Position numbers and translations under genes: made by a program. A DNA stretch of 64,000 nucleotides from Desulfotomaculum sp. (GTDB lineage Bacteria; Bacillota; Desulfotomaculia; Desulfotomaculales; Nap2-2B). Below the pieces are notes generated by a model. It worked only from the letters and a program-made list of their open reading frames with translations. It made no database searches and was not told the origin of the DNA. Of the stretch, positions 4,447-54,068 are shown in pieces; position 1 is the first letter of the stretch, and each line of letters begins with the position of its first letter. Location of the stretch: the NCBI GenBank assembly GCA_003485325.1, contig DMZI01000068.1, positions 38,553-102,552 on the forward strand, written 5' to 3'.

Positions 4447-6465
<2,019 letters not shown>

Positions 6466-9784: not shown

Positions 9785-9980
9785 GGCGCTTAAGCATCTT
9801 AAGTAAGCGGCGCATCGGAAGGATGAAAATTCATCAACAAGGGAGGTCAATGCCTCAAGTGCGATTTTGAGCCTTAATTCAAAGAAAGAGAGAACCCGAG
9901 GATAAGCGAGGGAACTGTTTGAGGCGTGTTAACGCCGAGTTTGACCGAGCCCGAGGGTCATCAACTTCATCGGACAACTA
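9785..9980. repeat. intergenic repeat copy (B-tail fragment + head remnant + A-body), forward orientation
   Basis: 9821-9960 aligns by eye to the reverse complement of 61213-61355. 9785-9818 resembles the ...GCTTAAGCAYCGGAGTAAGCGG... block seen at 27310-27335, 46970-46993 and rc 60815-60845. Confidence 0.8.
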
Positions 9981-9981
9981 C

Positions 9982-10022
9982 TAAGGCTTGACAAAAAAAA
10001 TGTTTAAGCCTTATTCTTTTTT
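9982..10022 (+). terminator. hairpin TAAGGCTT-N16-AAGCCTTA followed by a T-run (putative gatCAB terminator; first part of the duplicated cassette)
   Basis: 8-bp perfect inverted repeat followed by ttcttttttg. The same structure recurs at 20108-20148. Confidence 0.45.
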
Positions 10023-10033
10023 GTTGTTAAATA

Positions 10034-10087
10034 TACAAATTTATTGTAATTATTTTAATTTAACCGGTCTATTGTTTTTTTTATTAT
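10034..10087 (+). promoter_or_regulatory. palindrome TACAAATTTATTGTA (10034-10048) plus putative sigmaA promoter TTAACC-16-TATTAT (10060-10087) upstream of adenine deaminase
   Basis: Read directly. The whole block is near-identical to 20160-20213 upstream of the hydroxylase operon. Confidence 0.45.
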
Positions 10088-10115
10088 TAAATTAAATATA
10101 AGGAGATTTCCAGTT

Positions 10116-11870
10116 ATGAATTTGAGAGAATTAAACAGTTTGATTAAGGTGGCGATGGGAGAAGAAAAGGCGGATTTAGTGCTCCAAAACGGCTCACTGG
10201 TTAACGTATATACGGGCGAAATACTGGAAGAACATTCTGTGGCCGTCAAGGGGGAAAGAATAGCCTGGGTAGGCAAAGACGACAGGAATGTTACAGGGCC
10301 TGAGACGAATGTTATCGACTGTACAGGGAAATTTATCATCCCGGGATTTATAGACGGCCACACCCATTTAATTCTTTTCTATCAGGCGGATCAGTTTCTT
10401 AGATATGCGATGCGGGGCGGGACTACCACAATAATTACAGAACTGATGGAAATCAGCTTTCCGCTTGGATATCAGGGAATTCTGGAATATCTGGAATCCC
10501 TTAAAAACCAGCCCATAAAGATTTTTGGTGTGGCGCCTCCGATGGTTACAAACAGCTTAAGGACGCGATCAAGAGCGATTAACCTTGATCAGATTGCCGA
10601 ACTGCTCAAACGTGATGATATTTTAGGTTTGGGAGAAACATACTGGTCAGCCGTAATTGAACGGGATGAAAAGATACTGGAGTTTTTTGTTGAGACTTTC
10701 AAGGCGGGCAAGATAATTGCGGGCCATACGGCCGGCGCCAGGGGCAACAGGCTTACAGCTTATGCGGCGGGAGGTGTCCGGTCGTGCCATGAGCCAATCA
10801 CCGCGGCGGATGTTTTGGAAAGGTTAAGGCTGGGTCTTTATGTACTGATCAGGGAAGGAGGTATCCGGAAAGAACTGGCGGAAATATCGAAAATAAAGGA
10901 TCTGCAGCTCGATCTGAGACAATTGATTCTATCCACGGACAGTATTACTCCTGAGCAAGTGGTAGAGGAAGGTTATATGGAAGCAGTGGTCCAGAAAGCC
11001 GTCGACCTTGGTTTTGATCCTGTTTGCGCTATCCAAATGGCTACACTAAACGTGGCCAAATACTGGAATCTGGATCATCTAATTGGTGGTATTGCGCCCA
11101 GCAAATATGCAGATATCATTATTCTGCCGGATCTGTACAATATAAAAGCCGAGTATGTAATCAGCAACGGCAAGGTTTTATCAAAAGAAGGCAAACTTCT
11201 TTTAGAACCAAGTAAATATACATTTCCGGCCTGGGCGCATAAAAGTATGCGGCTGACCAAGAATTTTGGACCTGAGGACTTTGAAATAAATGTTAAAAGC
11301 AACAGCGACCCTGTAAGAATCAGAGTAATTGAACAAATAACTGAACTGGTGACAAAGGAAACAATCCTGGAAGTCCCCGTCCTGGAGGGAAAAATCAAGG
11401 TTGATTTGGATAAAGACTTAATAAAAATTGCTGCTGTAGATTTTCTGGATGACCAGTTAAAAATGTTTGTCGGGTTAATCAAGGGCTTTCGGATGAAGAA
11501 AGGGGCGTTTGCCAGCAGCATGGCCTGGGATTTGACTAATATAGTGGTCATAGGAGCTGACGAAAAGGATATGGCGGTTGCTGTCAACAGGGTTCTAGAA
11601 CTTCAGGGAGGTATCGTGGTCTGTTCAAATGGTAAAATACTGGCTGAACTACCCATGTCCATAGGAGGTTACATGAGCAATCTTCCGATTGAAGAAATCG
11701 TCCAAAACCTTAAAGATATTCAAAAAGAGGCATCAGGTCTTGGCATCCCCTTCCCTGATGCGGAACTAAGCTTAAATACCCTGACAACTTCCGCAATACC
11801 ATTTTTCCGGATTTGCGAGGAAGGCTTTTATGATCTGAAAAACAACCGTTTGGTTGGCCTGCTGGTTTAA
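10116..11870 (+). CDS. ade: adenine deaminase
   Basis: 584 aa. It has the amidohydrolase metal motif IPGFIDGHTHL, and its length and the CHEP region are typical of the Ade family. An AAGGAG RBS is present. Confidence 0.9.
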   Translation: MNLRELNSLIKVAMGEEKADLVLQNGSLVNVYTGEILEEHSVAVKGERIAWVGKDDRNVTGPETNVIDCTGKFIIPGFIDGHTHLILFYQADQFLRYAMRGGTTTIITELMEISFPLGYQGILEYLESLKNQPIKIFGVAPPMVTNSLRTRSRAINLDQIAELLKRDDILGLGETYWSAVIERDEKILEFFVETFKAGKIIAGHTAGARGNRLTAYAAGGVRSCHEPITAADVLERLRLGLYVLIREGGIRKELAEISKIKDLQLDLRQLILSTDSITPEQVVEEGYMEAVVQKAVDLGFDPVCAIQMATLNVAKYWNLDHLIGGIAPSKYADIIILPDLYNIKAEYVISNGKVLSKEGKLLLEPSKYTFPAWAHKSMRLTKNFGPEDFEINVKSNSDPVRIRVIEQITELVTKETILEVPVLEGKIKVDLDKDLIKIAAVDFLDDQLKMFVGLIKGFRMKKGAFASSMAWDLTNIVVIGADEKDMAVAVNRVLELQGGIVVCSNGKILAELPMSIGGYMSNLPIEEIVQNLKDIQKEASGLGIPFPDAELSLNTLTTSAIPFFRICEEGFYDLKNNRLVGLLV

Positions 11871-12097
11871 AGTAAACTGAAAAAAGGGCAAACTGCCTTT
11901 TTGCCATGGTATAGGCGTCGGTTGTGTAGGGTTTGTTTCTGGAGCGGGGTATGCAATTTACAGAACAGATCTTCCGCACTCGGCGGCTATTAACAGCCTT
12001 CCGATTTCTTACGAAAAAATCTGGAAGGCAATTCGGGATAAGAAAAAAGAGATTCAAACTACCGGTTAATGTTTATATAGATTTGCAGGTGAGATTA

Positions 12098-12436
12098 ATG
12101 CGGCCTGTTTTTAAGATTTGGCTTGAGAATAACGGAAAAGTTTTTGGCGAAGGGCCTTTGGAGATTTTGCAAAAAGTTGAGAAAACGGGTTCTCTAAGAA
12201 GTGCAGCCGCACAGATGGGGATGTCTTATAATAAGGCCTGGCGCTTGATTGCCGCTCTTGAAGAAAGGTTGGGGTATTCTCTTTTAGAGAAAAGAGTTGG
12301 CGGAGCATGCGGCGGTGGCTCAAAAGTCACCCCGTATGCCCAACAGTTAATGAAAAGGTATTCCGAACTCAAGGAAGAAGCTGAAATTGTGCTAGAAAAG
12401 CTTTACCTTAAGCATTTTGAAGGGTTTAAGACCTAA
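12098..12436 (+). CDS. ModE N-terminal-domain-like (LysR-type wHTH) molybdate-responsive regulator
   Basis: 112 aa from the ATG with an AGGTGAG RBS. LEILQKVEKTGSLRSAAAQMGMSYNKAWRLIAALEERLGYSLLEKRVGGACGGGSKVTPYAQQL matches the ModE/MopA N-domain pattern. The upstream in-frame extension to 11933 looks non-coding. Confidence 0.7.
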   Translation: MRPVFKIWLENNGKVFGEGPLEILQKVEKTGSLRSAAAQMGMSYNKAWRLIAALEERLGYSLLEKRVGGACGGGSKVTPYAQQLMKRYSELKEEAEIVLEKLYLKHFEGFKT

Positions 12437-12467: not shown

Positions 12468-12487
12468 TTATACTAATATGAGTATAA
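12468..12487. promoter_or_regulatory. inverted repeat TTATACT-N6-AGTATAA (ending ...TATAACG), candidate ModE-type operator overlapping a TATACT -10
   Basis: Read directly, 64 nt upstream of the 12551 start. It resembles the TATAT-N-TAYATAACG architecture of E. coli ModE sites. Confidence 0.3.
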
Positions 12488-19145: not shown

Positions 19146-19757
19146 TTGAGCAATTTTATTTCAGCTGTTATTTTAGCAGCGGGACAGGGAACAAGAATTG
19201 GCCGGCAAAAACTTCTCCTGACACTTGGCGGGAAAACAATAATCGAAATTGCAGTTGCTGCCGCACTGGGATCGAAGGTCAGTGAAACAATAGTTGTTTT
19301 AGGCCACCAGTCTGAAGAGATTGCCCAAGTTTTAAAAGGTCTGCCTGTCAAAACGGTTTTCAACCCCGATTACCGTTTAGGGCAAAGCACTTCCTTGATT
19401 TCCGGAATAAAGGCGATAAATCCTAAATCCGATGCATTCCTGGTTGTTCTGGGCGACCAGCCCTTCGTAACCTCTTTGTTGATCGATCAACTTATTGATT
19501 TTTATGAAAGATCTTTATGCCTCATTGCCAGGCCGCAATTTCAGGAAATACCCGGCCACCCAGTGCTTTTTAATACCAGTCTTATCCCGGAATTGTTAAA
19601 CAATTTAAAAGGAGATATTGGAGCCCGCGAAATAATCGCCCGTCATCAGGACAAGGTCAGTTTAATGCGGATTAAAAATGAGTCTGCGTCTAAGGACATT
19701 GATACATACGGTGATTATCAGACCGCTAAAGAATATTATTCAAAGACCTTAAAGTAA
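19146..19757 (+). CDS. mocA: MobA-like nucleotidyltransferase (YgfJ/MocA, molybdenum cofactor cytidylyltransferase family)
   Basis: 203 aa with the N-terminal AVILAAGQGTRIG..K motif and LGDQP. A GGGGGAG RBS is present. Confidence 0.8.
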   Translation: MSNFISAVILAAGQGTRIGRQKLLLTLGGKTIIEIAVAAALGSKVSETIVVLGHQSEEIAQVLKGLPVKTVFNPDYRLGQSTSLISGIKAINPKSDAFLVVLGDQPFVTSLLIDQLIDFYERSLCLIARPQFQEIPGHPVLFNTSLIPELLNNLKGDIGAREIIARHQDKVSLMRIKNESASKDIDTYGDYQTAKEYYSKTLK

Positions 19758-19892
19758 ATAACAAGAGATTTATCAGGTTGTACTAAGCAGGAGTGCAGAT
19801 GTAGCCTCGTAATACATAAAATCCGGTGGCTGAGCCAGTCGATACGGGGCGAAGGCGGAAGGTATAAAGAACAGACTGACCGTTCGGCTTTT

Positions 19893-19923
19893 CACCCATC
19901 GGCGGAGTATCAGCGGCGACAGG
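19893..19923. repeat. weak B-tail-like repeat fragment (CACCCATCGGCGGAGTATCAGCGGCGACAGG)
   Basis: It resembles CATCGGAGTAAGCGGTGACAATG (27314-27336) and CACCGGAGTAAGCGGCGATAAAT (46977-46999). Divergent. Confidence 0.3.
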
Positions 19924-20107
19924 TATTATTATTGATTAATCATATAGATCGGGTTTATAATAAACCCAATTATCTTCGCAAGGTGGAAAGAAAATTAAAC
20001 AGAAGTGACTTCTAAACCAGCCGGACAGGGGATTACAAAAAGAGCCCGTGTCTTTAATTCTTTAATATTGAATCTAAAAAAAGTTTACAAATTTATAGGG
20101 CAACTTC

Positions 20108-20148
20108 TAAGGCTTGACAATTTAAAAGTGTTTAAGTCTTATTTTTTT
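20108..20148 (+). terminator. hairpin TAAGGCTT-N18-AAGTCTTA followed by a T-run (second copy of the cassette terminator, after the ygfJ/mocA operon)
   Basis: Read directly. It has one mismatch in the stem relative to 9982-10013. Confidence 0.4.
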
Positions 20149-20159
20149 GTCGCAAAATA

Positions 20160-20213
20160 TACAAATTTATTGTAATTATTTTGATTTGACCAGTTATCTG
20201 ATTCTTTTATTAT
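20160..20213 (+). promoter_or_regulatory. palindrome TACAAATTTATTGTA (20160-20174) plus putative sigmaA promoter TTGACC-16-TATTAT (20186-20213)
   Basis: Read directly. An extra half-site TACAAATTTAT lies at 20086-20096, and a 5'-UTR hairpin ATTAATGC-N14-GCATTAAT lies at 20221-20250. Confidence 0.45.
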
Positions 20214-20300
20214 TAAATTAATTAATGCAGCTTGCGGTGCAGGCATTAATACATTGCCGAAAGCAACTTGTTAAAAGTTAATATAAAGGAGAGTAATTTT

Positions 20301-20684
20301 ATGGAAGATGAAAAAGATGCGGTTTGTTGGCAGGACGGAGGTGTAAACCCTTCTCATGAAACCCCGACCCTTATTAAAGCTGCCCATGAACGTGAGCATA
20401 AACATGACATAGAACATTATCTCGATGAAATCAAGAAATGGGAGTACTGTTATTGCGCGAATTGCAGGCAAATGAGATTTAGTACGGAACTTGAGGCAAC
20501 AGAGAACGGGATTCGCTGCGCCAAATGCAAAAGTTATAACCTGGAAGCCCCTGGCTGGGTTGTTTGCCCTTATCACAAAGATTCATTGGTTAAGTGCGCC
20601 CGGGCGGGTAAGGGAATAGTGAAATTAAAGCATGAAGCCGAGTGTAGGGATCACTGCCATTTTCGGGTAACCAAGGAAAAGTAA
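20301..20684 (+). CDS. hypothetical Cys-rich (10 Cys) zinc-ribbon-like protein, first gene of the hydroxylase operon
   Basis: 127 aa from the ATG with an AAGGAGAG RBS. Motifs are CYCANC...CAKC (ribbon-like pair), then C..H, C and CRDHCH. I recognise no family. Confidence 0.6.
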   Translation: MEDEKDAVCWQDGGVNPSHETPTLIKAAHEREHKHDIEHYLDEIKKWEYCYCANCRQMRFSTELEATENGIRCAKCKSYNLEAPGWVVCPYHKDSLVKCARAGKGIVKLKHEAECRDHCHFRVTKEK

Positions 20685-20794
20685 TAAAAGCTGGAAAAAT
20701 ACGATTTTAACAATTTGTAAGAAGAGGTGGTACAGGAAACTAGGGATAGTCGGGGTTTTTAGTGTTTGAAAAATTGCGAAGAGGTGATCAAAAC

Positions 20795-21664
20795 ATGTAT
20801 CTGCCAAATTTTGAATATTTTCAGCCGGATAGTATTGAGGAAACCTGCCAATTGTTGTCACAGTTTGGTTCCAAAGCCAAATTGTTCGCCGGCGGGACCG
20901 ATGTTATCATCAAGATGAAAAAAGAGTTGTTGTCGCCGGAAATCCTCGTCTCCATCGAGAAAATCGACCAATTGAAAAAAATCGAGTATGTACCCGGCAA
21001 AGGCGTTGTTATCGGAAGCGGAGTTACCCATAACGATTTAGTCTATTCAGAGCTTTTGCATGAAAAATACCTGTCCATATCCGAAGCGGCCCGGCAAATG
21101 GCGAACAACCAGGTGCGAAACCTCGGCACCGTAGGCGGCAATATCGGCAGCGCCGTACCTTCCGCCGATCTGCCGCCGATACTCATCGCCCTTGGCGCAA
21201 CCGTTAAAATTACGGGTGTGAAGGGAGATCGGACCATGGATCTGGAAGATGTGTTCATCGGTCCCGGTAAGACCGTTTTGGCACAAGACGAAATTATCAC
21301 CGAAGTAGTCATCCCCGACCAGAAAATGACCGGCAGCAATTACATCAAATTCGGGCTGCGGGCATCGGGCGCCTTAGCCGTGGTTGGTGTGGCGGCAGCA
21401 GTTCAAGTTGAAAACAATGCCATCAAAGAGGCGAGAATAGTACTGGGAGCGGTTTCACCCACACCGGTGCGGGCAAAAAAAGCCGAAGAGTTCCTGAAAG
21501 ACAAGAAAATCAGCGACGAACTATTGGCCGGAGCCGGGGTCATTGCCTCCGGGGAATGCGTGCCTATCACAGACATACGGGCCTCGGCCGAATACCGTAA
21601 AGACATGGTGCGCGTCTTTACCAGGCGGGCATTGCGCAAAGCTATCGACGAAGGGCATGCTTAA
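20795..21664 (+). CDS. xanthine dehydrogenase family FAD-binding subunit (CoxM/XdhB-like)
   Basis: About 289 aa from the ATG with an AGAGGTGA RBS. It has FAGGTDVIIKMK and GTVGGNIGSAVPSADLPP, and a C-terminal CO dehydrogenase flavoprotein domain (SAEYRKDM). Confidence 0.9.
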   Translation: MYLPNFEYFQPDSIEETCQLLSQFGSKAKLFAGGTDVIIKMKKELLSPEILVSIEKIDQLKKIEYVPGKGVVIGSGVTHNDLVYSELLHEKYLSISEAARQMANNQVRNLGTVGGNIGSAVPSADLPPILIALGATVKITGVKGDRTMDLEDVFIGPGKTVLAQDEIITEVVIPDQKMTGSNYIKFGLRASGALAVVGVAAAVQVENNAIKEARIVLGAVSPTPVRAKKAEEFLKDKKISDELLAGAGVIASGECVPITDIRASAEYRKDMVRVFTRRALRKAIDEGHA

Positions 21665-21680
21665 GAAAGGGGCGCTGAAA

Positions 21681-22178
21681 ATGTTAAAGTTCGTTACAGA
21701 TAAAGACGGAGTCAAACGTTATTTAGTTTCATTAAAAGTTAACGGCAACGAGTATACAAGGATGGTTAAAGCCAACAGCCTGCTGGTAAACTTCTTGCGG
21801 GAGGAGCTTGACCTTACCGGAACTAAAAAGGCGTGCGAACAGGCCGATTGCGGCGCCTGCACCGTGCTGCTGGATGGGAAACCGGTCAACTCCTGCATGA
21901 TCCTGACCATCAACGCCGACGGGCGGGAAGTCATAACTGTCGAAGGTCTCGCTACAAATGGAAAGCTGGACATACTCCAGGAAAAATTCATAGAACACTC
22001 GGCGCCGCAATGCGGCTACTGCACTCCCGGCATACTCATGTCGGCCAAAGCGTTGCTTAATCGCAATCCCCACCCAACCGAATATGAAGTACGCGAGGCT
22101 ATAGCAGGCAACCTGTGCCGTTGCACAGGATATGTCAATTACGTCAAGGCAATTTTAGACGCGGCAGAAAATCAATAA
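21681..22178 (+). CDS. xanthine dehydrogenase family (2Fe-2S)-binding subunit
   Basis: 165 aa with CEQADCGACTV (plant-type cluster) and CGYCTPG...CRCTGY (second cluster). Confidence 0.9.
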   Translation: MLKFVTDKDGVKRYLVSLKVNGNEYTRMVKANSLLVNFLREELDLTGTKKACEQADCGACTVLLDGKPVNSCMILTINADGREVITVEGLATNGKLDILQEKFIEHSAPQCGYCTPGILMSAKALLNRNPHPTEYEVREAIAGNLCRCTGYVNYVKAILDAAENQ

Positions 22179-22186
22179 AGAAAGGA

Positions 22187-24526
22187 ATGGGAACATTGAG
22201 CGAAAAACATTCCTATGTTGGAAAAAACCTTCAGAGAACTGACGTACTGGATAAGGTGACCGGGCGCGGCAAATTTACCGCCGACCTCAAATTTTCTAAC
22301 ATGTTGTATGGAAAACTTATTTACAGCACGCATGCTCACGCGCGAATTTTAAATATCGACACATCCGAAGCTGAAAAACTGCCCGGTATAAAGGCCATTA
22401 TTACCGCCAAAGACGTGCCCTCGATAAGATACGGGCTTAGCCCCGCCCGCTATGACGAAAACATATTTTGCATCGACACAGTCAAATTTTATGGTGATAA
22501 AATAGGCGCTGTGTGTGCGATTGATGAAGATACGGTATATGAAGCCCTCAAGTTGATTAAAGTAGAATACGAAGCGCTGCCGGCCGTATTTACTCCCGCT
22601 GAAGCGGCTGCAGAAGGCGCGCCGCAAATCTTTGAGGAATACCCGCGCAACCTTAACACAGAAATTCACCAGCATTTCGGTGATTGCGACAAAGCACAGG
22701 AAGAAGCCTACTACGTGCGCACCGACCGCTTTCAGGGACAACGCACGATACACGGCGTCATCGAACCACACTGCACAATCGCCTACTGGGAAGGGAAAAG
22801 AGTAATTGTTCATGCCGCCCACCAGTCAGTCCACTACCTGCAGCATCACCTAGCCCGGATTTTAGGAATGAAAGAAGGCGACATACGCGTAATCACCCCC
22901 TATGTGGGCGGCGGTTTCGGCGGAAAACTCGATGTCAGCGGCCTGGATATTTCAGCCATTATCCTTTCCAAAATAACCGGCCAGCCGGTCAAAATGGCTT
23001 ATGACCTGGAAGAAGTTTGGCTAAACGGCCGCGGCCGTCACGGCATGGATATGGAATACACCACCGGCGTAACCAAAGAAGGAAAAATCCTCTTCGTAAA
23101 AAATGAGATTGTCATAGACGGCGGCGCGTACACTGGTCTGGGTATAGCCTCGGCTTACTACGCGGGAGCCCTGCTGACCGTGTTGTATAATTTCGATAAC
23201 TACAAGTTTGACGCGTATAGGTACGTAACCAACCTGCCGCCCTGCGGCGCACAAAGAGGACACGGGCAGCCGCACCCGCGCTACGCTTTTGAAAGCCACT
23301 TGGATCACATCGCTGAAGATCTTGGTATAGACCCGATCGAGATACGTATAATCAATGCCCGCAAATCCGGTGATGTAACACCAAACGGATACGAACTAAA
23401 GTCATATTTCTTGAAAGAAGCAAATGAACTGGCGCGGGACGCCTCCGGGTGGAAAGACAAGAAAGGCAAGATGGCCAAGGGCAGAGGCATCGGCGTCGGC
23501 AACGGCGGTTTTGTTTCCGGCGCGGGTTTCTGTCAGTACCGGACCGACCTGCCGCACTCGATAGCCATGATCAAAGTGTATGACGACGGTTCCCATGCGA
23601 TCGTATATACCAATGCAGTCGATATTGGTCAGGGCAGCGATACGGTGCTCAGACAGATGGCCGCCGAGGGGATGGGTTATCCATACGACGACATCTCTAT
23701 CGTGTCCCATGATACCGACCTGGCTACCCTTGATTTTGGCGCTTATGCCAGCCGGCAGACCTTGATGGCCGGCTGGGCGGTAAAAAGAGCGGGAGAAGAT
23801 GTCAAGAGAAAAATTCTTGAGATGGCGGCGGAAATGATTAAAGTCAAGGAGGATGGCGGTTACCGCTCGGGCAAGTTGATGCCGGAAGAACTGGACTGCA
23901 GGGAAGGCATCGTATTTATGAAGCAGGAACCGGCTGTTAAAATAACCTTTGCCGAAGTGGCCCGTGCTTATTTTGTGAAAAACGGTTTGTTGATTGGGCG
24001 CGGCTATTACCACCCCGGCAAACTGGGCGGCCAGCACAAAGGGGCGGCGGTTGGCACGTCCCCGGCCTACAGCAGTGCGACCCAGGTTTCCGAGGTGACT
24101 GTTGATGAAGAAACCGGTATGGTAAAAGTTCTCAATACTTGGGACGTGCACGACAGCGGCGTCGCAATCAACCCGAATTTGTTGCACGGACAGGTGCACG
24201 GCGCCTTTGCCATGGGCATTGGTGAGACCCTCTGGGAAAAAGTAATGTTTGATGAAAAAGGAAAACTGCTCAACGGGAACTATGCTGAATACCGGCTGCC
24301 GACCGCGCTGGATATGCCGCCGGTGCATTCAATGATCTTGGATACTTTCGAACCCAACGGGCCTTATGGCGCGAAAGAAGTTGGCGAGGGCGCCACCACC
24401 CCGACCTTGGGTTGTGTTGCCAACGCTGTTTACGACGCCACAGGAGCCAGGGTATCCAGTCTGCCGCTTACTCCGGAGAAGGTCTGGCGCGCCATGAAGG
24501 AAAAAAGAGAGCGCGAAGAAAAGTAA
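22187..24526 (+). CDS. xanthine dehydrogenase family molybdopterin-binding large subunit (candidate selenium-dependent purine hydroxylase)
   Basis: About 779 aa with GKNLQRTD..KVTG, YVGGGFGGK, GQGSDT and AKEVGEG near the C-terminus. The start is uncertain (ATG 22187 or TTG 22196). Confidence 0.9.
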   Translation: MGTLSEKHSYVGKNLQRTDVLDKVTGRGKFTADLKFSNMLYGKLIYSTHAHARILNIDTSEAEKLPGIKAIITAKDVPSIRYGLSPARYDENIFCIDTVKFYGDKIGAVCAIDEDTVYEALKLIKVEYEALPAVFTPAEAAAEGAPQIFEEYPRNLNTEIHQHFGDCDKAQEEAYYVRTDRFQGQRTIHGVIEPHCTIAYWEGKRVIVHAAHQSVHYLQHHLARILGMKEGDIRVITPYVGGGFGGKLDVSGLDISAIILSKITGQPVKMAYDLEEVWLNGRGRHGMDMEYTTGVTKEGKILFVKNEIVIDGGAYTGLGIASAYYAGALLTVLYNFDNYKFDAYRYVTNLPPCGAQRGHGQPHPRYAFESHLDHIAEDLGIDPIEIRIINARKSGDVTPNGYELKSYFLKEANELARDASGWKDKKGKMAKGRGIGVGNGGFVSGAGFCQYRTDLPHSIAMIKVYDDGSHAIVYTNAVDIGQGSDTVLRQMAAEGMGYPYDDISIVSHDTDLATLDFGAYASRQTLMAGWAVKRAGEDVKRKILEMAAEMIKVKEDGGYRSGKLMPEELDCREGIVFMKQEPAVKITFAEVARAYFVKNGLLIGRGYYHPGKLGGQHKGAAVGTSPAYSSATQVSEVTVDEETGMVKVLNTWDVHDSGVAINPNLLHGQVHGAFAMGIGETLWEKVMFDEKGKLLNGNYAEYRLPTALDMPPVHSMILDTFEPNGPYGAKEVGEGATTPTLGCVANAVYDATGARVSSLPLTPEKVWRAMKEKREREEK

Positions 24527-24592: not shown

Positions 24593-25043
24593 TTAGATCT
24601 GATGACTGGCGTTGAAACCGCCGCCGGGACCATGTTGCTTGTTTCCAAAGATAGGTTTTGGCAAATTCATTTTTACATCAACCGTATCGATAATGTAATG
24701 GTTAAATAATACCATTGCATTTCGATTATTGGGCGGTTTTGAAAATGTCAATGCAGCAAGAAAAGAATCAAGCCTAAAAGTTTTAAAGGAACGGTTTTCT
24801 TTTGTTGCATTTAGGATAGTTTCAGTCCTTGATAGAGAAAAGCAGGTTTCTTTTGGAAGCCTGTTTTTTATTGCTTCGTTTAAAAAATAGGACAAAAAAT
24901 AATGGTCTGACAAAAGCAATGAAAAAAATTTCATTTTTTAAACCCAATCGGTCATGAACAGGTGACGAACCGCTATGGTATGCAGTAAAAGAATTACATA
25001 TTATTTTATTTAAAGACTTAAAGTAACACCGGTTCCAGTTCAT
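24593..25043 (-). pseudogene. frameshifted hypothetical ORF pair in an AT-rich spacer (possible gene or mobile-element remnant)
   Basis: Two overlapping - strand ORFs (24822-25043 and 24593-24934) would join with a single frameshift. The region is low GC and I recognise no family. Confidence 0.3.
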
Positions 25044-25136
25044 TTTTGCCGCCGGTTAGAAAAAGGTTTATGTAACCGGCAGGAGAATATTTAATGTATA
25101 TAAAATTATGATCAGAGAACCTGCATATTATAGAGT

Positions 25137-27019: not shown

Positions 27020-27399
27020 TTAGACATCCATGCTGCTACGCAGCACCAGCAGCAGGATGAAAAAGTAAGTATTCAGTAAAACCGTCCAAAGGGCACGGGT
27101 TGTCAAAGCGAACGACTTGCGAAGCTCCGGTAACATCAGATAAGCGAAGCGAGGGTAACCGGACAGCGATGCGAAACCAGCGGCTCTCTTAAGTTGTTAT
27201 AAAAGCAGTCTTAATTCCAAAGTTAACAGGGCGATGTTGTTAGTTACTCATATGCCGCCTTTGCAGCGCCGCTAGTCCGGTCCGATGCAAGCTGCGCTGC
27301 TGTCGGTGCTTAAGCATCGGAGTAAGCGGTGACAATGCCGTGTCTATAGGACTCATTATATAAAAAACTAATTTTCAGGATGGATAGTTATCAGGATAG
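27020..27399. repeat. intergenic repeat copy: head + B-body + duplicated tail, forward orientation
   Basis: 27071-27184 aligns to rc 60970-61086, 27252-27350 aligns to rc 60801-60898, and head 27021-27065 aligns to rc 61347-61390. The central ~65 bp is not alignable. Confidence 0.85.
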
Positions 27400-46938: not shown

Positions 46939-46996
46939 CCGGTCCGAGGCGAGCCGTACCGCTGTTGGCGCTTGGGCACCGGAGTAAGCGGCGATA
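46939..46996. repeat. B-tail repeat fragment directly after the purQ stop
   Basis: GGTCCGAGGCGAGCCGTACCGCTGTTGGCGCTTGGGCACCGGAGTAAGCGGCGATAAA aligns to 27279-27338. Confidence 0.65.
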
Positions 46997-47029
46997 AATA
47001 GTTAGTTGTTATCCATTGGGGGAGATGAA

Positions 47030-51864: not shown

Positions 51865-52120
51865 AAAGAGTTCCTTTCAGTTAAAGAAATCAGCGTGCTA
51901 AAATATAAAAACATGTTTACTTATCCATTATAGATCCCATATTATTTATTAAAGGAAACAGATTTTAGGCATATAATAAGTTGCAAGGATGATTAATTTA
52001 TACTGACTTAAATATAACACATTTTCATCCATTCAAACATATATATACATTAGTTCTCATACTTTAAAGATTGTAAAAACGTAAAATGTTCCCTAACTCA
52101 ATACAATTGGCTTATACAAC

Positions 52121-53246: not shown

Positions 53247-54068
53247 TTAAATTTTTTGGTATATTGCAGGTTTTATATACTTGAAAAAACCAAGGGAACG
53301 GTCTATTGTTTCCGTATGCCCGATAAACAGGTACCCGCCCGGCTCCAGGTAACGGTGAAACCGTTCCAGGAGAGACCGGCGGGTGGGGCTGTCAAAATAG
53401 ATCATTACATTCCGGCAGAAGATAACATCAAACTTGCCTTTAAAAGGGTAACTGTCCTGGATCAGGTTCAGCCTTCGAAAGAGCACCTTATTTTTTAATT
53501 TTTGATGAATCGTCCAGTCGCCATCTTCGACTGAAATAAAATATTTCTGACGGTATGATGGCGGAACTGTTTCCAGTTGTTCTTTTGCATAAGTTCCTTT
53601 TATCGCTTTATCCAGGGAACTGATTGAAATATCCGTGGCTAAGATACTAAAATCCAATCCCTGGACCAAATTATCTAAAATAACCATAGCGGCTGTGTAG
53701 GGTTCTTCACCAGAAGAACATCCTGCGCACCAGACCTTAAGTTCCTTATCACCATTTTTTTCGAATGGTTTGGCAGCTTGGGGCAGCAATGTTTCCTTTA
53801 TAAAGTCGAAGTGGTCTTTTTCACGAAAAAAAAAGGTATGGTTTGTAGATACCCTGTCGATGAGAATTAGAAGCGCGCTTCCGCTTTTTTCCTCAACTAC
53901 ATATTGGTAGTAATCCTTAAAACTTGTAAATCCGCCTTGCTGTAATACATGCTGCAGCCTTCCTGTAATTAAAGCTTGCTTTTGTTCATTCAGGCTAATT
54001 CCAAATTTATTGTAGATCAGACCGCTGATTAATTGGTATTCCTTTTGATTAAGCTGCATTTCGTTCAA
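53247..54068 (-). CDS. cheR: chemotaxis protein methyltransferase CheR
   Basis: 273 aa with the SAM motif VWCAGCSSGEEPY and FCRNVMIYF. Confidence 0.93.
   Translation of the reverse strand: MNEMQLNQKEYQLISGLIYNKFGISLNEQKQALITGRLQHVLQQGGFTSFKDYYQYVVEEKSGSALLILIDRVSTNHTFFFREKDHFDFIKETLLPQAAKPFEKNGDKELKVWCAGCSSGEEPYTAAMVILDNLVQGLDFSILATDISISSLDKAIKGTYAKEQLETVPPSYRQKYFISVEDGDWTIHQKLKNKVLFRRLNLIQDSYPFKGKFDVIFCRNVMIYFDSPTRRSLLERFHRYLEPGGYLFIGHTETIDRSLGFFKYIKPAIYQKI

Follow-up and report, generated by a model that had tools for sequence, protein, structure and literature searches.

In Bacillus subtilis, the puc regulon places several operons for purine deamination and for enzymes of the xanthine dehydrogenase (XDH) type under one operator and one regulator, PucR, whose box reads WWWCNTTGGTTAA. 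ModE of Escherichia coli represses modABC and activates genes for molybdenum (Mo) enzymes, and at ohrA the operator coincides in part with the core promoter and serves to repress it. For UP elements, the distal consensus is reportedly AWWWWWTTTTT, as given by Estrem and colleagues in 1998/1999. The proven operator of OhrR, a dimeric winged-helix repressor of the MarR family, has the sequence TACAATTAAATTGTA at B. subtilis ohrA (PMC2651793), and yqeB, yqeC and ygfJ have been proposed as accessory genes of selenium-dependent Mo hydroxylases (PMC2276186). Here we describe two closely similar intergenic cassettes, copy A and copy B, in a 64,000-nucleotide stretch of DNA from Desulfotomaculum sp. 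(contig DMZI01000068.1, positions 38,553 to 102,552; the whole stretch is called the window below). Copy A precedes the adenine deaminase gene (ade, transcription unit A), and copy B precedes unit B, which encodes a Cys-rich protein and an XDH-family Mo hydroxylase. Comparison of the copies with each other and with their orthologues supports the view that the cassette is a conserved cis-regulatory module common to the two transcription units.

In each copy, a hairpin with a T-run is followed by the 15-mer TACAAATTTATTGTA and then by a sigma-A-like promoter. The parts of the cassettes and their immediate flanks are as follows.

9961-10097, plus strand: cassette copy A, in the gatB/adenine deaminase intergenic region (blastn, MAFFT, repeat finder).
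20088-20224, plus strand: cassette copy B, between a MobA/YgfJ-like gene and the Cys-rich-protein gene (blastn, MAFFT, repeat finder).
10034-10048, no strand: copy A inverted repeat TACAA-ATTTA-TTGTA (TACAAATTTATTGTA), centred at about -53.
20160-20174, no strand: copy B inverted repeat TACAA-ATTTA-TTGTA (TACAAATTTATTGTA), from the exact-match scan.
10060-10087, plus strand: copy A predicted promoter TTAACC-16-TATTAT (promoter scan 9/12).
20186-20213, plus strand: copy B predicted promoter TTGACC-16-TATTAT (promoter scan 10/12).
9982-10022, plus strand: copy A hairpin and T-run, with TAAGGCTT at 9982-9989, a loop of N16, AAGCCTTA at 10006-10013 and the T-run at 10014-10022.
20108-20148, plus strand: copy B hairpin and T-run, with TAAGGCTT at 20108-20115, a loop of N18, AAGTCTTA at 20134-20141 and the T-run at 20142-20148.
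20210-20224 (copy A 10084-10098), no strand: A/T-only near-palindrome TTATTAA-A-TTAATTA over the -10/start region, read from the sequences.
20086-20096, no strand: upstream half-site TACAAATTTAT, exact sequence.
20221-20300, plus strand: copy-B-specific 5′ leader, from alignment with the leader of a related species.

Copies A and B aligned by blastn with 83.6% identity over 140 nt (E 2.9e-34). This result, together with MAFFT and a repeat finder, bore out the near-identity of the two stretches claimed in an earlier note made from the sequence alone. The hairpin with its T-run, with the arms and N16/18 loops described there, and the promoter TT(G/A)ACC-16-TATTAT were likewise found in both copies.

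Scanning the 64 kb with the exact 15-mer TACAAATTTATTGTA returned two matches, both in the cassettes, and exact matches to TACAA-N5-TTGTA were confined to the same two sites. Among six distinct cassette versions from at least three lineages, the arms TACAA and TTGTA were invariant, while the spacer read ATTTA, ATATT or AATTA. Such conservation of the arms around a free spacer is consistent with an operator, and the putative operator is embedded in an invariant AAATATACAAA block. The distance from the centre of the repeat to the -10 hexamer was 41 nt in all six versions, without any indel between them, which places the repeat at about -53. Two details of the earlier description needed correction. 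What had been called a perfect 15-bp palindrome is present in both copies but is perfect only in its 5-bp arms, the central ATTTA not being self-complementary, and its centre, said to lie 35-40 nt upstream of the -35 element, was measured 19-22 nt upstream of that hexamer. Once the centre is corrected to about -53, the upstream site still fits the activator-type position proposed at the time.

Relatives with about 90% protein identity formed the comparison set, with orthologues of copy A upstream of ade in loci L034-L039 and orthologues of copy B upstream of the Cys-rich-protein gene in L009-L012. Over the 82-nt core, from the T-run to the predicted start, identity between orthologues was 0.84-0.90, compared with 0.73-0.75 at 4-fold degenerate sites of ade and 0.83 at those of the unit-B genes. 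The DNA immediately upstream of the core was unalignable between B copies (0.36). Cores of type A and type B were 0.77-0.87 identical to each other, and the relative's two downstream hydroxylases, number 1 following ade and number 2 belonging to unit B, share 59-63% protein identity. Invariant columns clustered in TTTTTTGT, AAATATACAAA, TTGTA and the -10/start region TATT.TTAAA.TAA. Differences that distinguish the A type from the B type (for example, A in place of G in the -35 box) recur across species. It follows that the duplication happened before the species diverged and that the copies have not recently been homogenised. Among distant homologues, neither TACAA-N5-TTGTA nor ACAA-N5-TTGT was detected in the relevant upstream regions of ade (L040 and L041, 64-66% identity) or of the Cys-rich-protein gene (L013-L017, ∼70%), which confines the motif to the close lineage.

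A profile of the core, run with nhmmer on the window and on 426 kb of related loci, recovered copy A with E 8.6e-15 and copy B with E 6.3e-17. All matches with E ≤1e-13 were cassettes and their orthologues, and the next match had E 0.08; no third copy was found in the 64-kb window or in the 426 kb of related loci. A search of two large genome and metagenome contig collections with the 20-mer TATACAAATTTATTGTAATT gave 6 and 16 loci, which were 20-30-nt chance matches in A/T-rich genomes except for a single locus, the already known relative LDZU01005528. The proposed regulon rests on these two sites. A dispersed repeat of the REP or MITE (miniature inverted-repeat transposable element) type was considered and rejected, as there are only two copies, each at the orthologous promoter position in related species. 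A one-mismatch site at 54000 falls within the cheR coding sequence. Upstream of rmuC we also observed a one-mismatch TACAA-N5-TTGTA-like site, TACAATTGGCTTATA (52102-52116), and a ModE-box-like site with three mismatches (51999-52016), both of which are probably chance matches.

Both cassette promoters combine sigma-A-type hexamers with a spacer in the 16-18-nt range. In copy A, the predicted start lies near 10094, followed by the ribosome-binding site AAGGAG (10100-10105) and an ATG at 10116; in copy B, the predicted start lies near 20220, with AAGGAG at 20287-20292 and the ATG at 20301. The -10 box TATTAT was invariant in five of the six versions, copy A of L039 having TATTGT. The -35 box was near-consensus TTGACC in copy B, both in the window and in the related species, and weak in the copy-A lineage (TTAACC, TTATCA, TTAATA). 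Conservation of the A/T-only near-palindrome over the -10/start region, which is perfect in L034 (TTATTAAATTAATAA), may simply reflect the promoter. Three alternative promoters were rejected, since either their spacing or their hexamers vary between copies: TTGACA inside the hairpin paired with TATTCT; TTGTTA paired with TG-n-AATTAT, an arrangement that would leave the repeat between the two hexamers; and a minus-strand TACAAT.

The hairpin arms follow the pattern TAAGGCTT-N16/18-AAG(C/T)CTTA in both copies, the single arm difference yielding a G-U pair in copy B. RNA folding gave -14.6 kcal/mol (z -3.4) for copy A and -12.3 kcal/mol (z -1.6) for copy B; across versions, folding energies ranged from -12 to -16.5 kcal/mol and z-scores against shuffled sequences from -1.6 to -4.3, and the hairpins were followed by six to eight T. 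The hairpin is common to all copy-A orthologues and to the window copy B, and in relatives it stands directly after the gatB stop codon; the related species has no such hairpin in its orthologous B copy. The hairpin is probably the intrinsic terminator of gatCAB, duplicated together with the promoter and not necessarily regulatory. The extra half-site that had been noticed upstream of copy B was confirmed at 20086-20096. Copy-A orthologues retain it as TTTACAAnnTTATA; in the window copy A (9963-9973) it has degenerated.

The leader of copy B, in its block 20226-20285, shares 93% identity with the leader of the related species. The extra leader segment is ∼59 nt long, not 50 nt as first described, and holds the reported ATTAATGC (20221-20228)-N14-GCATTAAT (20243-20250). 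This stem is not conserved in the related species, where the inner GCTTGC-N3-GCAGGC hairpin alone is kept. The copy-B leader folded no better than shuffled sequence (z -0.15; other leader z -0.28). In Rfam, no match in the window reached its gathering score, and the cassette regions gave only chance-level matches with E up to 10. A leader peptide was rejected, since the 18-codon open reading frame (ORF) that begins at 20225 is not conserved in the relative.

Taken together, the two copies are duplicated, conserved among relatives and fixed in spacing, and this pattern leads us to regard the cassette as a real, selectively maintained promoter-operator module, with the terminator copied alongside. 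With moderate confidence, we favour a pair of sigma-A promoters, each with an upstream operator and preceded by the terminator of the upstream operon, probably co-controlled by one dimeric regulator encoded outside the window. What follows is inferred, and so are the sites of transcription start and termination, the binding of a protein, the direction of regulation and the signal for induction. The regulator would bind the TACAA-N5-TTGTA operator and, once bound, co-control unit A (ade, with hydroxylase 1 in relatives) and unit B (the Cys-rich protein and hydroxylase 2). Activation by recruitment of RNA polymerase would be the likelier mode, given the location of the site ahead of the core promoter and the weakness of the -35 boxes in copy A; repression through masking of an A/T-rich upstream element would be the alternative. 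The hairpin and T-run would terminate the upstream operon, gatCAB at copy A, and so shield the promoter from read-through.

Several observations weigh against this reading. The excess of conservation over 4-fold sites is modest, above all in copy B (0.90 versus 0.83), and is based on six distinct sequences. The start sites at 10094 and 20220 are predicted, not mapped. Two sites per genome are known, so that the regulon is unproven, and no gene for a MarR-family or other plausible transcription factor was found among the scanned ORFs of the window and the genes of related loci. The A/T core of the repeat would also fit an RNA-polymerase UP element that acts without a regulator. The distance from the half-site to the main repeat is 74, 76, 77 or 78 nt depending on the version (hand count), which argues against strict helical phasing. 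As for the hairpin, it has an A/T-rich stem, a 16-18-nt loop and only three G-C pairs, and a simple terminator scan did not call it because the loop exceeds 8 nt and the G-C pairs are so few. A covariation check among orthologues found no compensatory changes; as the arms are nearly invariant, it gives no evidence either way.

The genes downstream of the cassettes, together with the only candidate regulator of the cluster, are listed here.

10116-11870, plus strand: adenine deaminase gene, unit A (Pfam Adenine_deam_C and Amidohydro_1; TIGR01178 373 bits, cut-off 472).
20301-24526, plus strand: unit B, the Cys-rich protein followed by the XDH-family hydroxylase subunits, the latter found at 20762-24526.
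20795-21664, plus strand: unit-B FAD (flavin adenine dinucleotide) subunit.
21657-22178, plus strand: unit-B 2Fe-2S subunit.
22187-24526, plus strand: unit-B Mo subunit.
12098-12436, plus strand: gene for a 112-aa helix-turn-helix (HTH) protein resembling the ModE N-terminal domain (Pfam HTH_1; TIGR00637 67.5 bits, cut-off 98.5).
12469-12486, no strand: canonical ModE-type box TATACTAATATGAGTATA, the sole exact TATAC-N8-GTATA in the window, upstream of the moeA-like gene and modABC.

Copy A thus stands between gatCAB and ade. Downstream of ade follow hairpins, the ModE-like gene, a MoeA-like gene, modABC, xdhC, yqeB (TIGR03309, 359 bits, above cut-off), yqeC, the MobA/YgfJ-like gene and copy B. 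Family searches confirmed an adenine deaminase and an XDH-family enzyme downstream of the two cassettes, as had been reported, and the position of the cassettes before catabolic enzymes is in line with the idea put forward at that stage. In relatives, ade is followed directly by hydroxylase 1, an XDH-family enzyme, and unit A there is ade plus hydroxylase 1; hydroxylase 1 has been lost in the window. Here, unit A is probably ade alone, because a terminator-like hairpin (11882-11902) follows it. Beyond that hairpin we observed a long (∼80 nt) imperfect hairpin at 11911-11990. The hairpin pair is kept in three lineages at the 3′ end of unit A (L034 13520-13630; L039 2080-2195), and the window copy of the long hairpin has an insertion in its apical loop; among the three sequences the pair gave no Rfam match and no compensatory changes.

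The purine link drawn in the earlier note holds for unit A, with ade alone or ade plus an XDH-family enzyme in relatives, but is not firm for unit B. The best match of the unit-B Mo subunit is not an XDH model but TIGR03194, 4-hydroxybenzoyl-CoA reductase alpha (925 bits, cut-off 994.55), and the paralogous Mo subunit beside ade in relatives (L034 11174-13477) exceeds that cut-off (1036 versus 994.55). Against a true 4-hydroxybenzoyl-CoA reductase stands the weak match of the FAD subunits to the beta-subunit model of that enzyme (120-128 bits, cut-off 404.55). These scores leave the purine label of unit B insecure, and the TIGR03194 match is a likely source of misannotation. The first gene of unit B (20301-20684) encodes a 127-aa protein with eight invariant cysteines, arranged as CxxC...CxxC and C-x9-C-x15-C-x3-C. 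In relatives it occurs only beside genes for XDH-family enzymes or selenium-dependent-hydroxylase accessory factors. Its sequence equals that of a protein assigned by NCBI to the metagenome-assembled genome Desulfotomaculum sp. 46_296, and this locus is also present on a metagenome contig of the Joint Genome Institute. The protein matched no Pfam family. Its AlphaFold model, with a confident core and a mean pLDDT (predicted local distance difference test) of 67, had no match at E ≤0.001 in the PDB by Foldseek. It may be an unrecognised accessory factor.

The earlier note had found no obvious regulator in the window. The cluster does contain the gene of a ModE-like HTH protein, the only DNA-binding protein found there, but this is probably not the regulator of the cassettes. 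Structural searches matched the protein to PDB 2ijl (E 6.5e-13) and to E. coli ModE (1o7l/1b9m, E 4e-8). A ModE box, TATACTA-N4-TAGTATA within CG-TTATACTA-N4-TAGTATAA-CG, stands 17-40 nt past the stop codon of the modE-like gene in five genomes, its positions in relatives being L034 14015; L042 10367; L043 9966 and 10380; L044 9949 and 10363. The two Pelotomaculum loci, L043 and L044, carry a second box upstream of the modE-like gene. The local box fits the published ModE consensus geometry (PMC545781) and is probably the operator of a ModE family in Peptococcaceae that retains only the N-terminal domain. The cassette departs from this box, reading TATAC-N9-GTA(A/G)(T/G/C) without CG flanks. 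Since a canonical box is conserved beside the modE-like genes, we consider ModE unlikely to regulate the cassettes.

Which other mechanisms might account for the same conservation? The main rival to a dedicated regulator, itself unlikely in our view, is an UP element contacted by the alpha subunits of RNA polymerase and offsetting the weak -35 boxes, in which case the look of an inverted repeat would be incidental. The block at about -60 to -46 occupies the distal UP-element position, AAATTTATTGT fits the distal consensus at 9/11 positions, the spacing to the -10 box is fixed, and the spacer changes among orthologues remain A/T; the poor -35 boxes of copy A would also be explained. Yet the only C and G of the block, which lie in its arms, are invariant in 6/6 versions, although an UP element would favour T at the position of the G. 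The two arms mirror each other exactly, a known protein operator (that of OhrR) has this 15-bp architecture, and copy B keeps the block despite its good -35 box. ModE variant sites and a mere remnant of duplication appear less likely than the UP element. For ModE, the proposal is that the protein would bind the cassette as a variant site, TATAC-N9-GTA, activating Mo-enzyme operons with molybdate and repressing Mo uptake, so that the regulon would be one of molybdenum and not of purines. The dual role of E. coli ModE lends this proposal some weight, as do the presence in the cluster of its sole DNA-binding protein, kept there in relatives, the invariant left flank ATATAC, which equals the left half of the local boxes, (T/A)TATAC, and the location of both cassettes before Mo-enzyme operons in relatives. 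ModE motifs, moreover, diverge between lineages (PMC545781). We nevertheless hold it doubtful: the canonical N8 box after the modE-like gene in five genomes defines the likely site of this protein, the cassette has N9 in place of N8 with a right half of GTA only (GTAAT, GTAGG, GTAGC, GTAAG), and a protein of 112 aa with HTH_1 only is without molybdate-binding domains.

It is improbable that the similarity is simply the trace of a segmental duplication or gene conversion of promoter and terminator, leaving two ordinary promoters without shared regulation. The gatCAB terminator hairpin was copied with the promoter, which suggests a block copy rather than convergent evolution, and gene order is fluid in relatives, with the loss of hydroxylase 1, the deletion in L039 and an intron fragment at 19742-19917. 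Against this reading, both copies occur in two species with their type-specific differences kept, so the duplication is old; A and B cores remain 77-87% identical, versus ∼60% for the adjacent enzymes and unalignable flanking intergenic DNA; and the invariant positions gather in the repeat arms and the -10 box instead of being evenly distributed. Least of all do we expect the cassette to act as RNA, whether as leader, riboswitch, attenuator or small RNA. A hairpin with a T-run is attenuator-like, and the leader of copy B (60-140 nt) is conserved, but the most conserved block lies between the terminator and the predicted start, the leader of copy A is only ∼20 nt long, the leader stem first proposed is not conserved, both leaders fold like their shuffles (z -0.15, -0.28), and no Rfam family matched, either at gathering score or with E up to 10.

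The cassettes could form an undescribed circuit coupling adenine deamination to the expression of selenium-dependent Mo hydroxylases in Desulfotomaculum/Pelotomaculum-like anaerobes, a possibility that we regard as speculative. One candidate route would be a MarR-like activator sensing purines or their products and acting from -53. The other would be single-domain ModE, with the N8 box repressing Mo uptake and the half-conserved N9 site activating Mo-enzyme operons.

Rearrangements were observed around the cassettes. L039 (2190-3110) carries an extensive deletion that lies between ade and the racemase gene; cassette A survives there, and a piece of the Mo subunit of hydroxylase 2 (DVPSIKFGLSPARYDETIFC) remains within a spurious ORF of 127 aa. 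Four independent assemblies of the related species, L009-L012, end 600-710 nt upstream of the Cys-rich-protein gene, suggesting that the DNA shortly before cassette B is repetitive or varies between strains in that species. In the window, a match to RF02005, group II intron D1-D4, lies on the plus strand at 19742-19917 (42.6 bits, gathering score 49, E 9.5e-11), between the MobA/YgfJ-like gene and cassette B. No match to group II intron D5/D6 was found anywhere in the window, so that the D1-D4 match resembles what is left of an intron at a point of rearrangement.

Two further features of the window lie outside the cassettes. A 59-nt G+C-rich direct repeat, 78% identical, occurs at 27277-27335, upstream of argG, and at 46939-46997, directly after purQ; it matched no Rfam family at gathering score. 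A strongly conserved non-coding block at ∼25040-25136 (L009 ∼6250-6400), upstream of an Asp/Glu-racemase-like gene, reads AACCGGTTC...TTTTTGCCGC...GGTTTATG...CCGGCAGGAGAAT...TTAATGTATATAAAATTATGA and may be another regulatory region.

The cassette is an ordinary kind of bacterial control region, newly described here; no description of the motif string was found in the literature searched. If the repeat is a real operator, it offers a handle on the control of adenine and purine breakdown and of selenium-dependent Mo hydroxylases in an uncultured spore-forming anaerobe, and anaerobic purine degradation of this type has received recent attention in gut bacteria. The locus also shows clearly how a promoter-operator unit can stay nearly constant long after its operon was duplicated, even as the enzymes encoded there have drifted apart to ∼60% identity. 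In practical terms the gain is modest and consists of a motif open to test, TACAA-N5-TTGTA at -53, and its clear separation from the ModE box of the cluster.

How does the cassette compare with known systems? Several other known motifs were set aside for misfit of geometry or orientation, or because the feature was not conserved between copies; these were CRP/FNR, TnrA/GlnR (TGTNA-N7-TNACA), Fur-family 7-1-7, CopY/BlaI (TACAnnTGTA), phage 434/Xre (ACAA-N6-TTGT), IHF, Spo0A and sigma-E/K -10. The 15-bp pattern TACAA-(A/T)5-TTGTA of MarR/OhrR-type sites is present in the cassette. Of characterised operators, that of OhrR comes closest: the cassette shares with it the arms TACAA/TTGTA, a 5-bp A/T spacer and the length of 15 bp, TACAATTAAATTGTA and TACAAATTTATTGTA agreeing at 12/15 positions (PMC2651793). 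The target of OhrR is a peroxiredoxin gene, whereas those of the cassettes encode an adenine deaminase and Mo hydroxylases; moreover, the site lies at ∼-53 instead of overlapping the core promoter, and no adjacent gene gave a MarR Pfam match. The resemblance would thus tell what kind of protein could bind, and not that the repeat is an OhrR site.

The likeness to a ModE regulon lies in the ModE-like gene and box of the cluster, in the ATATAC left flank of the cassette, which resembles a half-site, and in the Mo enzymes encoded downstream. Compared with the ModE box proper (E. coli consensus ATCGNTATATA-N6-TATATANCGAT), the cassette has N9 versus N8 and is without the right half-site and the CG flanks. 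Activator-dependent sigma-70/sigma-A promoters likewise combine a weak -35 box and a conserved -10 box with an A/T-rich element fixed upstream; copy B differs from them in its near-consensus -35 box. The functional analogue is the PucR regulon. The cassette motif differs from the PucR box, and the window holds no PucR-type gene. Unlike the units of that regulon, the enzymes here are encoded in one cluster with yqeB, yqeC and a ygfJ-like gene, the proposed accessory genes of selenium-dependent hydroxylases (PMC2276186).

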